In this document: piece after piece, positions 16,740 through 20,898 of the stretch | Layout: each line of letters opens with the position of its first letter | How positions within the stretch are numbered: the first letter of the stretch is position 1 | NCBI GenBank assembly: GCA_964645415.1 | Contig: CAZXZL010000005.1 | Location: 1-35,501 of the forward strand | DNA from: an uncultured Methanosarcinales archaeon | Lineage (GTDB): Archaea > Nanobdellota > Nanobdellia > Woesearchaeales > CAZXZL01 | Direction: 5' to 3' | DNA: 35,501 nt | Notes under the pieces: generated by a model | Databases searched by the model: none | Told to the model about the DNA's origin: nothing | What the model saw: the letters and a program-made list of their open reading frames with translations, nothing else | Made by a program: the position numbers and the translations under genes

Positions 16740-16801
16740 AAACAAATATTACTACTTAATCATAATAAATTTAATGTCTTGATTATAAAAAGGTGATTCA
16801 A

Positions 16802-17782
16802 ATGGAAAAGTATAAAATTTCTGAAAAAGGAAAAAAATACTTAAAGAAAGCTGCAGCATTCGGTGTTGGAGCTGCTTTAATTGCAAGTAGTTATGTTGGT
16901 GGAGTTTTAGCTAATGATGATATTGAAAAACAAGTTAATGAAGAATTAAACAATGAAACAAAAATTACTCAAGAAGTAGATCATGATTTTGATTTCAAGT
17001 TTGATTATAATAGAGTATCTCATGATGACTTTAGAGAGATTTATGATACAACAGGAGAAGGAGTTGATTTTAAATATGATTCATCTAATAAATTTGAAAT
17101 TGATACTAACATCGGCTTTAAAGATAGTGGATTAATTATTGGTGGTAATTATAGTAATAAATCTTTTTCAGGAGATATGATTTATGGAGAAGATAAAAAT
17201 GTTGGTGATTCAAGTAAAAAAGCTTCAATAATACTTGGAAGGTTAGGATATAATATAGATGAAGATACAATTATTCATACAGGTTATGGAAGTATTAGTG
17301 GAGAAAGAATAGCTAATTTTATCGATGATGATAGAGATTATGGTACTGATTTTAATGATTCTATAGTTGAAATTGGATTAAATCATAGTGGTAAATCTGA
17401 TGAGAATAAAATCAACCTTGAATTTATCTTAGATCGTGCAATAAATGATAATAATACAGGAATTAGAGGAAATGTTGATATAGAATCTAATGGAAATAGG
17501 TTTGGAGTTAATTTAGATAATTCTGCAAAATCTGAATACTTAGTTGACCGTTTAATTGATTTTTATGGATTAAGATCAATAAATGTTAATGATGAAAGTA
17601 GTATAAAAAATTCAGAAATAGGATTAAGTTACCAAAATTCATTAGAAGAAGGAATTGATAACATGATAGGATTGATTGGAAGTTTAGAAACAGAAGAAGG
17701 ACTAAATATTGATTTAAGATTAAAAAGGTCTCTAAATTCTGATACAAGTGGATTAAATATTAGTTTTGAATATGATTATTAA
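16802..17782 (+). CDS. Secreted beta-strand-rich (porin-like) protein, family B member 1
   Basis: There is an N-terminal signal/anchor, KKAAAFGVGAALIASSYVGGVLAND. About 260 aa then show alternating hydrophobic/polar strands (FEIDTNIGF, GLIIGGNYS, ASIILGRLGYNI, SIVEIGLNH, KINLEFILD, NRFGVNLDN, SEIGLSYQN, LNIDLRLKR). It ends in GLNISFEYDY, with aromatic or hydrophobic residues at positions -1, -3, -5, -7 and -9. It is homologous to the C-terminal domain of the 19216 gene. The track start 16793 is a GTG inside the SD. Confidence 0.75.
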   Translation: MEKYKISEKGKKYLKKAAAFGVGAALIASSYVGGVLANDDIEKQVNEELNNETKITQEVDHDFDFKFDYNRVSHDDFREIYDTTGEGVDFKYDSSNKFEIDTNIGFKDSGLIIGGNYSNKSFSGDMIYGEDKNVGDSSKKASIILGRLGYNIDEDTIIHTGYGSISGERIANFIDDDRDYGTDFNDSIVEIGLNHSGKSDENKINLEFILDRAINDNNTGIRGNVDIESNGNRFGVNLDNSAKSEYLVDRLIDFYGLRSINVNDESSIKNSEIGLSYQNSLEEGIDNMIGLIGSLETEEGLNIDLRLKRSLNSDTSGLNISFEYDY

Positions 17783-17810
17783 TTCTTTCTTCTTTTTTTT
17801 CTTTTATTTT
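17783..17810 (+). terminator. Oligo-T terminator
   Basis: The tract ttctttcttcttttttttcttttatttt lies directly after the stop codon. Confidence 0.5.
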
Positions 17811-17838
17811 AATTTTAACCTCTATTTCTAAAAAAACA

Positions 17839-17846
17839 TTTATAAA
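17839..17846 (+). promoter_or_regulatory. TATA-box-like element (aacaTTTATAAAtt) upstream of the SLT gene
   Basis: It matches the shared motif. The SD taggtggtt precedes ATG 17890. Confidence 0.4.
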
Positions 17847-17889: not shown

Positions 17890-19023
17890 ATGAAAAGTAA
17901 CTTATTAAAAAAAGTAACATATCTTGGATTAGGTACAGTTATGATTTCAGGATTAATAACAAGTCAGATGCTAGTAGATAATAGTGATCTTGAAAAAGAA
18001 ATATTTAATGAAATGAATTCTTCAGTAAAAAGTGAAACTTATTATAATAACAATAATAACAATCAAATTAGTAAAAATATTAAATACCATCAAAATAATA
18101 ATTTGAAATTAAATAATAACAATAATCTTTCTTTAGAAGAAGTTTTAGATTCAGAAATAAATAATTCTAATTTGGAATTTAATAATATTGATTATTATAA
18201 TTATAATAACATTAATCACAATAATAATAATAATAATAATAATAATAATAATGATGTTAGTAATCTTATTAGTCTAAAAGAAATATATGAAAAAAATAAC
18301 ATAGATAATATAGATGAATATAAGAAGAGGCATTTAAGTAATATTAATAACTTTGAAAATAACATAAAAAGAGTATATAATATAGGAAAAGATTATTTTA
18401 AAGAAAGTAATTTAAGTGTTGATTTCAATGAACTTGATATATATTCTTTGATTTTCATAGAAAGTACTTTTGATGAAAATAAAATTAACCAAAATTATAA
18501 TTTTCCAAACGATTATGGCCTTATGCAAGTAAATGAAGTAGTTAATAATGATTTAAATAGAATCTATAATTTAAATGAATCAAGTAATTATTTCTTTTCA
18601 GAAACACAAAAAATGTTAAAAGATTTTTTTACACAAGATGATTTTAATTCTAACCGATTTAAAGAGACAAGTGATAATTCAAAATATAACATTAAAGCAG
18701 GAATCTCATATCTTTTTATGATTAATGAATATTTTAATAAAATAAATTCACTAGATTTTAATTCATTAGATGAAAATACAAAGCTTGATTTAATTATGTG
18801 GGCTTATAATAGAGGTCCTTATGAAGTAGAAAATAGATTTATTAACTCTCCAAATAATTGGTTATCTAGTATGCCTTATAATACAGAATCAGGTAATATT
18901 AGACAAGATAGTTTTTATAATATTAGAGAAATATATAAGAACTTCTTTGAATTTAATGATAATCAAAAAGATAATCCTTTAGGAGATTATAATTTAATTT
19001 TAGAAAATAATAACTTTAATTAA
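17890..19023 (+). CDS. Membrane-anchored lytic transglycosylase (SLT / GH23 lysozyme-like domain) with an Asn-rich low-complexity linker
   Basis: An N-terminal TM segment (VTYLGLGTVMISGLITSQMLV) is followed by an N-rich region. The SLT motifs appear in order: IESTF (catalytic Glu-Ser, Glu codon 18460-18462), GLMQV (18517), NIKAGISYL and AYNRGP (18802). Confidence 0.8.
   Translation: MKSNLLKKVTYLGLGTVMISGLITSQMLVDNSDLEKEIFNEMNSSVKSETYYNNNNNNQISKNIKYHQNNNLKLNNNNNLSLEEVLDSEINNSNLEFNNIDYYNYNNINHNNNNNNNNNNNDVSNLISLKEIYEKNNIDNIDEYKKRHLSNINNFENNIKRVYNIGKDYFKESNLSVDFNELDIYSLIFIESTFDENKINQNYNFPNDYGLMQVNEVVNNDLNRIYNLNESSNYFFSETQKMLKDFFTQDDFNSNRFKETSDNSKYNIKAGISYLFMINEYFNKINSLDFNSLDENTKLDLIMWAYNRGPYEVENRFINSPNNWLSSMPYNTESGNIRQDSFYNIREIYKNFFEFNDNQKDNPLGDYNLILENNNFN
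18220..18252 (+). repeat. Perfect (AAT)11 microsatellite encoding Asn11 inside the SLT gene
   Basis: Read directly as cac-(aat)x11-gat, translating to H-N11-D. Confidence 0.95.
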
Positions 19024-19152
19024 TTAAAAAAAATTACTTATTTTAATTTCTAAAAAAATCATCTTATATAACTAAATTTATTCAATAATTTCATCTTCAT
19101 TTGTTAATTTTAAATAGTTTATTACTATATAATAACAAACTTAATAGAAATA

Positions 19153-19160
19153 TTTATAAA
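19153..19160 (+). promoter_or_regulatory. TATA-box-like element (aatatTTTATAAAag) upstream of porin-like gene 2
   Basis: It matches the shared motif. The SD tagggggtt lies 7 nt before ATG 19216. Confidence 0.4.
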
Positions 19161-19215
19161 AGATATACTACTTACAAGTAATAATTATTTAAGTTTTTAT
19201 TAGGGGGTTATAATA

Positions 19216-20898
19216 ATGTATTTAAAAAATAAAGTTAATAAAATTAAAGAAAAAGGTAAAGATTATATGAAGAAAGCAGGTTATGGTATTGGTGCTTTAG
19301 CTATAGCAGCTTCATTAATGACTGGTAGTGCTGATGCTAGCAACATCAATGATGATTATCAAAATGAAGTTTTAAATGAGATGAATAATCAAAGTGTTCT
19401 TGAGTTAAGTTATGATAGTTTAGATTTAGAAGATAGAGATAATCTTGAAGACGAAATTAATAATGAAAGTAATAGCTATTCTTATAAAGAATCATTAATT
19501 TTAGATGATTTAAGATCAGATAATCTTTCTGCTATTGAACAATATGAAAGTATTGATAAATGGTTAGATGATATGTATCGTGGAAATTTAAAACCAGCAC
19601 ATTATGAACAAGTTATTGGTAATGAAACATGGATAAAACAATTATCAATTATTGATGGTGATGATGTTAGTTATGATGAAATGAAAGATACTCTTCAAAG
19701 TAAATACGATAGAGCATTAAGAAGAGAAAGAAGAGAGAGAGATTTAGATCGAGATGAAAGAGATAGTCCTGAAGTAACAAAATGGAGAGATCTAGATACA
19801 GACGAAATTTTAGAAAGATTAGATGAACTAGATACTGATGAAGATTTAGAAGAAATTGTAGATGATGAAAAAATCGAAAAACCTACACCAGATAAAGTAT
19901 ATGAACCTGACTTAGATGAAGAAAAAGAAGATTATAAAGTAGATGATACATATGAACCTACAGAAGATCCTGATGATGAATATGTTGTTGATACTACTGA
20001 TGATGAAATTGAAGATGATAATGATTATGATCCAATCGAAGAAGATCCTAGTGATTTAGAAGAAATTCTTGATGAAGAAAAAGAAGTAGAAAGAAAATCT
20101 GATATTAATAGAAATTATGTGAGTTTTGAATATGGTCAAAATCAAGGTGCAGGAACTAGCGATATTTATGATACAACTGGTGATGGTGTAACTTTTGAGT
20201 ATGATCAATCAAGTGAAAAAAATATTGAAGTTGGATTTGAAATTCCTGATACTGATTTTAATGTTAGTGGATCATATTTTAGTCGAGATTTAGAAGGAGA
20301 TATGGTTTATGGAATTGATACTGATAATGAGATGGAAGTAGGAGATGCGACTAAAAATCAAACATTACTTTCTCTTGGTGTTGGATATGATTTTGATGAA
20401 AACTTAAATACATCAATTGGAGTAAATAAATATGATGAAGAGAAAATAGCAAACTTTGAAGATGATGATAGAGATTATACATTTGAAGACTCAGATATCA
20501 TCCCAGAAGTAAATGTTAGACAAATTATAGATATTAATGACTCAGATGAACTTGCTTTAGAAGGAACTTTAGATTATTCAACCTCTGATTCAGAATTAGG
20601 TTTTAGATTAGGAGGAGATTATTATTTTGGAGATAATAGAGTTGGATTAGATTTTGATAACACTAAAGTATCAGATAGATTAAATGAAAGAAGTATGAGT
20701 ATTAGTGCTGATAGAACATTTAATGATGATTATAATGTTGGTGTTAGTTATAATAAGTCTTTAGAAGATGATGTTGGAGATAGTATTGGAATTAATGCAA
20801 GTTACACATATGAGGATTTAATGTTAAAATTTGGTGTAGATAGAGGTATTGATGATGATGAACTTGAATCTATACTTGGACTCGAATTAAGTTTTTAA
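19216..20898 (+). CDS. Secreted protein: signal peptide, N-terminal domain, highly acidic linker and C-terminal porin-like beta-rich domain (family B member 2)
   Basis: The signal KKAGYGIGALAIAASLMTGSADASN has an A-x-A-like site. The D/E-rich linker spans about aa 170-295. The C-terminal approx. 260 aa align with the 16802 gene (IYDTTGDGVTFEYD, GDMVYG, EKIANFEDDDRDY, GVSYNKSLEDD). It ends in ESILGLELSF, with a terminal Phe. Confidence 0.8.
   Translation: MYLKNKVNKIKEKGKDYMKKAGYGIGALAIAASLMTGSADASNINDDYQNEVLNEMNNQSVLELSYDSLDLEDRDNLEDEINNESNSYSYKESLILDDLRSDNLSAIEQYESIDKWLDDMYRGNLKPAHYEQVIGNETWIKQLSIIDGDDVSYDEMKDTLQSKYDRALRRERRERDLDRDERDSPEVTKWRDLDTDEILERLDELDTDEDLEEIVDDEKIEKPTPDKVYEPDLDEEKEDYKVDDTYEPTEDPDDEYVVDTTDDEIEDDNDYDPIEEDPSDLEEILDEEKEVERKSDINRNYVSFEYGQNQGAGTSDIYDTTGDGVTFEYDQSSEKNIEVGFEIPDTDFNVSGSYFSRDLEGDMVYGIDTDNEMEVGDATKNQTLLSLGVGYDFDENLNTSIGVNKYDEEKIANFEDDDRDYTFEDSDIIPEVNVRQIIDINDSDELALEGTLDYSTSDSELGFRLGGDYYFGDNRVGLDFDNTKVSDRLNERSMSISADRTFNDDYNVGVSYNKSLEDDVGDSIGINASYTYEDLMLKFGVDRGIDDDELESILGLELSF

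Follow-up and report, generated by a model that had tools for sequence, protein, structure and literature searches.

Why should an archaeon, expected to have neither murein nor an outer membrane (OM), carry a gene for a murein-cutting type of enzyme between two genes for proteins that look like OM β-barrels? This question is raised by three adjacent genes in a 35,501-nt stretch of contig CAZXZL010000005.1 (assembly GCA_964645415.1), hereafter the window, from an uncultured Woesearchaeota/Nanoarchaeia-like archaeon of the DPANN group. OM-type transmembrane β-barrels are counted as a hallmark of diderm bacteria and of the organelles descended from them, and archaea are not known to make them. 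The locus also bears on how DPANN archaea attach to and draw on other cells, and on whether bacteria serve as hosts to any of them. Our best explanation is that the locus encodes a lineage-specific exported trio, a murein-type glycosidase and two OM-type barrels, acting on the envelope of a partner or prey cell. We give this reading a probability of roughly 0.45.

We observed three open reading frames (ORFs) head to tail on the forward strand (16793-17782, 17881-19023 and 19216-20898), in agreement with the initial annotation of the window. In the first two ORFs, the GTG codons listed as starts fall within Shine-Dalgarno (SD) sequences, and we moved these starts to the true ATGs at 16802 and 17890. 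Public gene calls agree with the corrected starts (326 aa for gene A, 376/377 aa for the middle gene), the 376-aa form being the 3-bp indel variant of one assembly. The genes and their domains are as follows.

16802..17782, forward strand: gene A, 326 aa; leader (residues 1-37), short linker, barrel-like domain (~60-326), ending GLNISFEYDY.
16802..16912, forward strand: leader of A, residues 1-37, ...GGVLA/NDD, with a putative signal-peptidase site by inspection (slash).
17890..19023, forward strand: middle gene, 377 aa; leader (residues 1-29), Asn-rich linker (~30-150), SLT domain (~158-352).
18361..18945, forward strand: SLT/GH23 domain, with a PF01464 match and catalytic motifs.
19216..20898, forward strand: gene B, 560 aa; leader (1-41, ...GSADA/S), acidic linker, barrel-like domain (~300-560), ending GLELSF.
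20113..20898, forward strand: barrel domain of B, with 14 antiparallel strands predicted by AlphaFold2 (AF2), a Porin_4 match and Foldseek neighbours.

The outer genes had been proposed to share a domain of about 260 aa, and the comparison of A with B bore this out: they are paralogs with a common domain of ~265 aa (32% identity over 253 aa, E = 7e-30). The similarity of the Lys-rich, Gly/Ala-rich N-termini, also remarked on at the outset, proved to reflect true relatedness (45% identity over 53 aa, E = 2e-8 for A and B; 33% identity over 42 aa, E = 2e-7 for the middle protein and A). A homologous leader of ~45 aa is thus common to all three proteins, and the likeness does not stop at the hydrophobic core but runs on into a D-x-E-K-x-V-x-N-E-x-N-N stretch. 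A profile made from the three leaders matched just these three proteins in ~50 kb of contig. No other finding ties the three genes together as strongly.

Each leader has a Lys-rich n-region and a Gly/Ala/Ser-rich core with a Kyte-Doolittle hydropathy of 1.3-1.7 (19-residue window). Small residues stand at -3 and -1 by inspection (VLA/N in A, ADA/S in B). The duplicated leader is most likely a Sec signal peptide, cleaved at these positions, and because it is a likely Sec signal, the three products would act outside the cytoplasmic membrane. An archaeal type IV pilin-like class III signal was also considered. FlaFind-type prepilin patterns have a [KR]-[GA] cleavage site directly before a strongly hydrophobic helix. 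On inspection KKA/AAFG, KKV/TYLG and KKA/GYGIG did not fit this pattern, and the Gly/Ala/Ser-rich cores are unlike the strongly hydrophobic helix of a class III signal peptide.

By its sequence, the middle gene product is a GH23/SLT-type lysozyme-like enzyme. The trimmed domain matched the Pfam SLT profile PF01464 above its cut-off (33.2 bits versus 21.3, E = 4.1e-8). The full-length protein gave no SLT match in the Pfam scan, probably because it is 23% Asn. The motifs that the initial annotation had assigned to SLT/GH23 are present: E191-S192 (nt 18460-18465), G210-L-M-Q213 and A305-Y-N-R-G-P310. The Asn-rich tract itself (18041-18272, codons ~50-128) is made of AAT repeats with up to 15 consecutive Asn; it varies by 3 bp between samples, and it masked the SLT domain in full-length Pfam and PDB searches.

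We found that D208 lies at +17 from the catalytic Glu, E191 (window positions 18460-18513), within NDYGLMQVN. This spacing equals that of E35 and D52 in c-type lysozymes, whose DYG(I/L)FQIN motif the stretch resembles. The best PDB sequence matches, all weak, were to insect c-type lysozymes (1gd6, 2rsc). Because of the Asp at +17 and these matches, the enzyme may be a hydrolytic muramidase rather than a lytic transglycosylase that forms 1,6-anhydro products.

A search with the trimmed domain returned a sole SLT homolog, P0004, a 342-aa protein from a Candidatus Woesearchaeota metagenome-assembled genome (MAG) that is 52% identical. The full-length query found itself alone, and two metagenome scans and one viral scan for SLT relatives were empty. 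P0004 keeps the E-S pair and reads YLMQ and GYNRG, with the first residues of GLMQ and AYNRGP changed. It has a classical signal peptide ending AQA/T and a precomputed PF01464 match that is listed as faint. Its gene follows RNase H and RNase T genes near the end of contig JBMCBV010000074.1. At positions 6200-6400 of that contig, 3' of P0004 and near the contig end, we observed short non-coding degenerate tandem-like repeats (…TGTTTGTGTGTATT.CGTTG.ATCGTGG.TTGT…).

The outer proteins had been described as having the texture of bacterial OM β-barrels. This is still the best description of them after profile searches, structure prediction, structural comparison and analysis of strand alternation, and the predicted structures resembled barrels, not a soluble fold. 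We consider A and B probably true transmembrane-type β-barrels. The period-2 hydrophobic moment, compared with shuffled sequences, reached z = 2.4 and 4.3 in the two barrel domains and z ≤ 2.1 in every other protein of the window. Predicted strands of B are hydrophobic at 64 of 100 positions on one face and at 17 of 96 on the other; when these faces were transferred to A by alignment, the counts were 51 of 98 versus 23 of 94. A GL[EN][LI]SF motif forms the C-terminal end of B and stands 4 residues from the end of A. The OM protein (OMP) and mitochondrial β-signal is G-x-x-Hy-x-Hy (Hy, hydrophobic) with a terminal or near-terminal Phe.

Family profiles gave matches in the same direction. Porin_4 (PF13609) matched the B domain at 27.8 bits (cut-off 27, E = 2.8e-6), over just profile positions 154-234 of 310; with full-length B its score fell short of the cut-off, at 22.4 bits. 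Further weak matches in Pfam and NCBIfam were to the OM barrel families OMP_b-brl, PopA, AcfA and CglE, and in addition to DUF2490. Between its leader and its barrel, B carries a very acidic spacer of ~255 aa, and the whole protein has 161 Asp and Glu residues. This acidic linker had no Pfam family match, and it could serve as a long spacer.

We ran AF2 on each domain with an alignment of just two sequences. Domain A was modelled with 13 long antiparallel strands (predicted local distance difference test, pLDDT, 71.2; predicted template-modelling score, pTM, 0.58), its N-terminal segment remaining unmodelled. Domain B was modelled with 14 antiparallel up-and-down strands of 6-22 residues (pLDDT 76.9, pTM 0.69). 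In Foldseek searches of the PDB with both models, the top 50 neighbours were all OM-type β-barrels, nearly all bacterial and rarely organellar or designed. They included autotransporter β-domains, BamA/TamA/FhaC, porins, OmpG, FadL/TodX and chain F of 8gl6 (type 9 secretion). The best E-values began at 6e-5, and template-modelling (TM) scores to real barrels were 0.33-0.55 with a root-mean-square deviation (rmsd) of 7-15 Å. A viral structure library gave nothing significant. The barrel fold, as a prediction, is reasonably supported.

Three more specific assignments were rejected. A type Va autotransporter lacked a PF03797 match, the model of B has 14 strands and not 12, and the pre-barrel region is acidic and of low complexity; autotransporter barrels appear as weak structural neighbours only. 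Membership in the PopA family (NF053618) was rejected, the score being 18.6 bits (cut-off 150, E = 1e-3). A β-barrel pore-forming toxin of the hemolysin, leukocidin or aerolysin type had no Pfam match; the models are single chains of ~14 strands, and their structural neighbours are OM proteins, not toxins. As a separate observation, the last strand of barrel A (LNISFEYDY, 17734-17774) resembles the first strand of B (NYVSFEYGQ, 20094-20134), with 73% identity at the DNA level. This likeness may be a trace of how the barrels were constructed or permuted.

Taken together, these features suggest how the trio might operate. The producer, a DPANN archaeon, would transcribe each gene from its own promoter and export all three proteins beyond the cytoplasmic membrane by the Sec-type leader. 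Glu191 would be the acid catalyst on a β-1,4-linked glycan of the N-acetylmuramic acid-N-acetylglucosamine type. Because the producer should lack such a glycan, the substrate is most likely bacterial peptidoglycan. A and B would be single-chain barrels of ~14 strands whose hydrophobic belt faces the lipid and whose lumen is polar, the barrel of B being hung on its acidic spacer. They would insert as a pore or an anchor into the membrane of the partner or prey, probably a diderm bacterium, once the wall is opened. Another cell's envelope is the most economical target because no genes for murein synthesis or OM biogenesis are visible in the region seen. We infer signal cleavage, membrane insertion, pore formation, the identity of the target and cooperation among the three proteins. 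A bolder version, in which the terminal strands are a genuine β-signal and the barrels enter the envelope of a diderm host, possibly via the host's own β-barrel assembly machinery (BAM), as a feeding pore or a tether, strikes us as doubtful. If it held, it would be direct molecular evidence of DPANN archaea parasitising bacteria and the first functional archaeal OMP-type barrel.

Several results weigh against an exported trio that acts on another cell, and we set them out together. When 1.84 billion representative proteins were searched with a HMMER profile, the two window proteins alone came back, and neither a word-indexed search of 5.8 billion proteins nor searches of PDB sequences found anything beyond them. 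No member of the barrel family was present in viral contigs, and no relative of the barrel or SLT family was present in 30 CarS neighbourhoods of related archaea. The arrangement had been expected to recur in relatives and was not found there: the single SLT ortholog, P0004, sits among housekeeping genes with no barrel-like ORF adjacent. Since the barrel family is without homologs, conservation of the trio cannot be shown, and by these searches the module appears strain- or genus-specific. With separate promoters and a terminator-like oligo-T tract after gene A, the layout of the three genes does not itself point to co-expression. No gene for an insertase of the Omp85/BamA/POTRA type, which might insert a single-chain barrel, was found in ~48 kb of contig. 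Domain A alone had no Pfam or NCBIfam family match, and the two-sequence alignments behind the AF2 models and the loose superpositions on real barrels also count here. The SLT substrate could be a glycan other than murein. Finally, we know of no DPANN archaeon for which a bacterial host has been demonstrated, and PMC8204110 is consistent with this.

We ranked the rival explanations with a non-membrane protein above an own-envelope component and the latter above an accidental neighbourhood. According to the highest of these, which we consider unlikely, A and B are soluble or surface-attached acidic β-rich proteins (adhesins, for example, or wall proteins that bind cations), and their porin likeness is that of a generic β-meander modelled by AF2 from a shallow alignment. 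The alignments of two sequences and the TM-scores and rmsd values above fit this explanation, as do the lack of a family match for domain A and the threshold-level Porin_4 match over 80 of 310 positions. The proteins are also very acidic, and strands that alternate hydrophobic and polar residues occur in β-sandwiches too. Yet two separately run models both arrived at 13-14 long up-and-down strands of 10-22 residues, every significant structural neighbour was a transmembrane barrel with no sandwich and no solenoid among them, the weak sequence matches were all to OM barrel families, and an aromatic residue closes the terminal GL[EN][LI]SF strand, a typical feature of OM proteins. We judge somewhat less probable still that the barrels are pores or anchors in the archaeon's own outer lipid layer or sheath and that the SLT-like enzyme remodels an endogenous glycan. 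The same export leader on all three proteins would suit such a role, as would a neighbourhood of housekeeping and lipid-synthesis genes in which a divergent CarS stands directly upstream. Two membranes occur in some archaea, among them the DPANN-affiliated Altiarchaeales, for which PMC12228718 suggests a distant PopA-like relative. Against this, ~48 kb of contig held no Omp85/BamA or other OM-biogenesis gene, the window showed no murein synthesis genes, and the family occurs in this strain alone, although a structural envelope protein should recur in relatives. To our knowledge, no double membrane has been described in Woesearchaeota-like archaea.

It is improbable, in our estimation, that the genes are unrelated neighbours or a decaying bacterial acquisition brought together by chance and without joint function. 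Each gene does have its own promoter, the SLT ortholog stands alone in the relative, and a nearby 148-nt duplication indicates recent local rearrangement. Against chance adjacency, the three ORFs are intact at 22% GC, where stops arise easily, the paralogs retain their pattern at 32% identity, the homologous leader is absent from other proteins in ~50 kb, the base composition is near that of the flanks, and the SD sequences and promoters are native in style. An assembly chimera, or bacterial, viral or mobile DNA binned with the archaeon, is barely credible. SLT and porin-like genes are typically bacterial, and SLTs are common in phages and conjugation systems, which is what speaks for such an origin. 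The locus was nonetheless assembled independently from three samples (two with MEGAHIT, one from Logan), identical but for one 3-bp indel, and this identity spans all junctions from CarS through A and SLT to B. Archaeal genes flank it on both sides within one 75-kb contig. Thus the contig is not chimeric with bacterial DNA, as the initial annotation had allowed it might be. A phage, mobile-element or defence origin was rejected as no match supported it: there were no viral-contig relatives and no defence-family matches, no integrase or conjugation genes lay near the locus, and PHROG gave one marginal match of unknown function, to the SLT domain alone. Sigma-70-type promoters were not enriched and no intrinsic terminators were found in a scan of the window, which also argues against a chimera.

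An exported trio directed at another cell therefore remains our preferred reading, and parts of it have precedents. Extracellular proteins with murein transglycosylase domains are characteristic of Woese- and Pacearchaeota with small genomes, and binding to bacterial walls has been proposed for them (PMC8204110). The joint occurrence of GH23 genes and putative pore-forming TlyC toxins in DPANN archaea has been read as 'vampiristic' (PMC9723730), and peptidoglycan hydrolases of haloarchaea have been shown experimentally to kill bacteria (PMC12352652). Porin-type barrels function in foreign membranes in the case of PopA of Bdellovibrio, in the inner membrane of the prey, and of PorB of Neisseria, in the mitochondria of the host (PMC12228718). 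The earlier statement that no system of this composition had been described therefore has to be narrowed: DPANN murein transglycosylases and the idea of pairing them with a pore former are already published (PMC8204110, PMC9723730), and what is new is the porin-like barrel. Of the toolkit first proposed to act on another cell's envelope, the assignment of the enzyme and the prediction of the barrels stood, and its export and action there are a proposal.

The middle protein resembles SLT/GH23 enzymes such as E. coli Slt70 and MltE and the VirB1/EtgA group in its above-cut-off profile match, its Glu-Ser, GLMQ and AYNxG motifs and its N-terminal export signal. It differs from them in being encoded by an archaeon and in having an Asn-rich linker of ~120 aa, an Asp at +17 and one close relative. 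With the DPANN murein transglycosylases (fam00969, PMC8204110) it has in common an exported GH23 domain and the idea of wall degradation paired with a membrane permeabiliser. Members of that family can be as long as 3,000 aa, and the middle protein, at 377 aa, is set apart from fam00969 by its size. The pore former proposed for those DPANN archaea is a TlyC-type hemolysin encoded elsewhere in the genome, whereas here single-chain porin-like barrels with the same leader adjoin the enzyme.

The barrels, as modelled, are like OmpG, FadL/TodX and the general porins in their long antiparallel up-and-down strands (14 predicted in B), hydrophobic outside and polar inside. Like OM porins they have a signal at the N-terminus and an aromatic residue that closes the C-terminal strand, and B matches Porin_4 at threshold level. 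Unlike OmpG, FadL and porins, they have no sequence homolog, TM-scores of ~0.45, a producer without a known OM or BAM and, in B, a 255-aa acidic extension. General porins have 16-18 strands, and the models of A and B have 13 and 14. E. coli MipA is an OM barrel scaffold that binds the lytic transglycosylase MltA. As in that pair, a lytic transglycosylase is here associated with an OM β-barrel, by gene adjacency; MipA serves the growth of its own cell's wall in a diderm bacterium, and the MipA family (PF06629) gave no match in the Pfam scans. If the trio does act on another cell, its barrels would be comparable to PopA and PorB, porin-type barrels of a predator or parasite acting in a foreign membrane, and PopA was among the weak matches. 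PopA and PorB first sit in the producer's own OM, however, and the archaeon has none.

We regard the single-chain OMP-like barrel as the new element here, a candidate pore former that adjoins an enzyme with a common leader; DPANN murein transglycosylases were already known, and porin-like barrels in DPANN were not. In terms of the models, the barrels appear to form an orphan family, new in itself, whose fold is known and whose host is unexpected, and the enzyme is a new member of a known family. If the barrels insert and the enzyme cuts murein, the locus would provide concrete evidence for archaeal predation or parasitism across domains, and for a barrel that can be deployed without an OM of its own. 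If the barrels are soluble, they would instead urge caution with barrel predictions made from shallow alignments. All three proteins are small, directly expressible and testable.

The transcription and translation signals of the locus are as follows.

16731..16739, forward strand: TATA-like box ATTTATAAA of gene A, within the shared motif GAAATATTTATAAAA...ACTAC.
16791-16797, forward strand: SD sequence AGGTGAT of gene A, containing the GTG listed as the ORF start.
17783..17815, forward strand: oligo-T tract after the gene A stop, read from the sequence, terminator-like.
17838..17846, forward strand: TATA-like box of the middle gene, inside the longer shared motif.
17879-17884, forward strand: SD sequence AGGTGG of the middle gene.
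19152..19160, forward strand: TATA-like box of gene B, inside the longer shared motif.
19202-19208, forward strand: SD sequence AGGGGGT of gene B, seven bases before the ATG at 19216.

We observed ATTTATAAA 52-71 nt 5' of each of the three ATGs, as part of a longer common motif. A TATA-like box before every gene had been noted and is present. Across the window, the 9-mer was found 13 times versus 11.6 expected from shuffled sequence, and it also occurs upstream of unrelated genes. A role as a special co-regulatory motif was rejected on these grounds; because the 9-mer is not enriched and precedes unrelated genes, it is the organism's ordinary TATA-type promoter. The AGGTG-type SD attributed to all three genes is found before gene A and the middle gene, and that of gene B differs from it. 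The oligo-T tract 3' of gene A looks like an archaeal terminator. Given the separate promoters and this tract, the genes look like three transcription units and not an operon. The GC content is ~22% throughout the window, and the three genes are close to their flanks in base composition.

The neighbouring genes are those of an archaeon. CDP-archaeol synthase (CarS) is encoded directly upstream of A in divergent orientation, and YdjM, a TRAM protein and a three-domain aRF1 are also neighbours, along with PyrB/PyrI, cytidylate kinase and a diphthamide-synthase fragment. Genes for NMD3, an ATP-dependent DNA ligase, Kae1/TsaD and MscS are found farther away. Among the archaeal markers that had been named, CarS, aRF1 and PyrI were recovered, and the diphthamide-synthase fragment, NMD3 and the DNA ligase add to them. 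Within the GTDB species representatives, CarS has its nearest relatives in Woesearchaeota/Nanoarchaeia MAGs, at just 47-49% identity, so the lineage is poorly sampled. CarS-like genes (24-37% identity) were also observed on contigs labelled Peregrinibacteria, Patescibacteria or 'bacterium'. Either these contigs are mis-binned archaeal ones, or CarS-like genes occur in candidate phyla radiation bacteria.

We also observed a direct repeat that includes the end of gene B.

20784..20931, forward strand: first copy of a 148-nt direct repeat; ~38 codons at the end of B, the stop and 33 nt of the intergenic DNA downstream.
23780..23927, forward strand: 148-nt direct repeat, copy 2, 89% identical; the 3' end of ORF 22476-23894.

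ORF 22476-23894 is otherwise unrelated to B. It encodes a K/N-rich protein of 472 aa that ends with a B-like strand (...ILELELSF), and in both copies of the repeat the next gene begins ~57-60 nt past the stop. We rejected it as a third barrel gene, as it has no leader and no barrel periodicity. Because the repeat copies intergenic DNA too, its B-like tail is a duplication at the DNA level.

Elsewhere in the window, five paralogous ORFs lie on the forward strand (2866-3576, 4393-5124, 6681-7394, 9159-9827 and 10405-11016), interleaved with ORFs of unassigned function. Their products are ~200-240 aa long and 24-36% identical (E down to 1e-32). A signal peptide was seen in none of the five, and the four that were searched (all but 10405-11016) had no Pfam, PHROG or PADLOC match. 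On the reverse strand, the diphthamide-synthase Pfam match is carried solely by an ORF of ~83-87 aa at 24224-24487, which overlaps the start of a 309-aa Ham1p-like gene on the same strand (24459-25388). By its sequence, this looks like a diphthamide synthesis gene that has been truncated or split.

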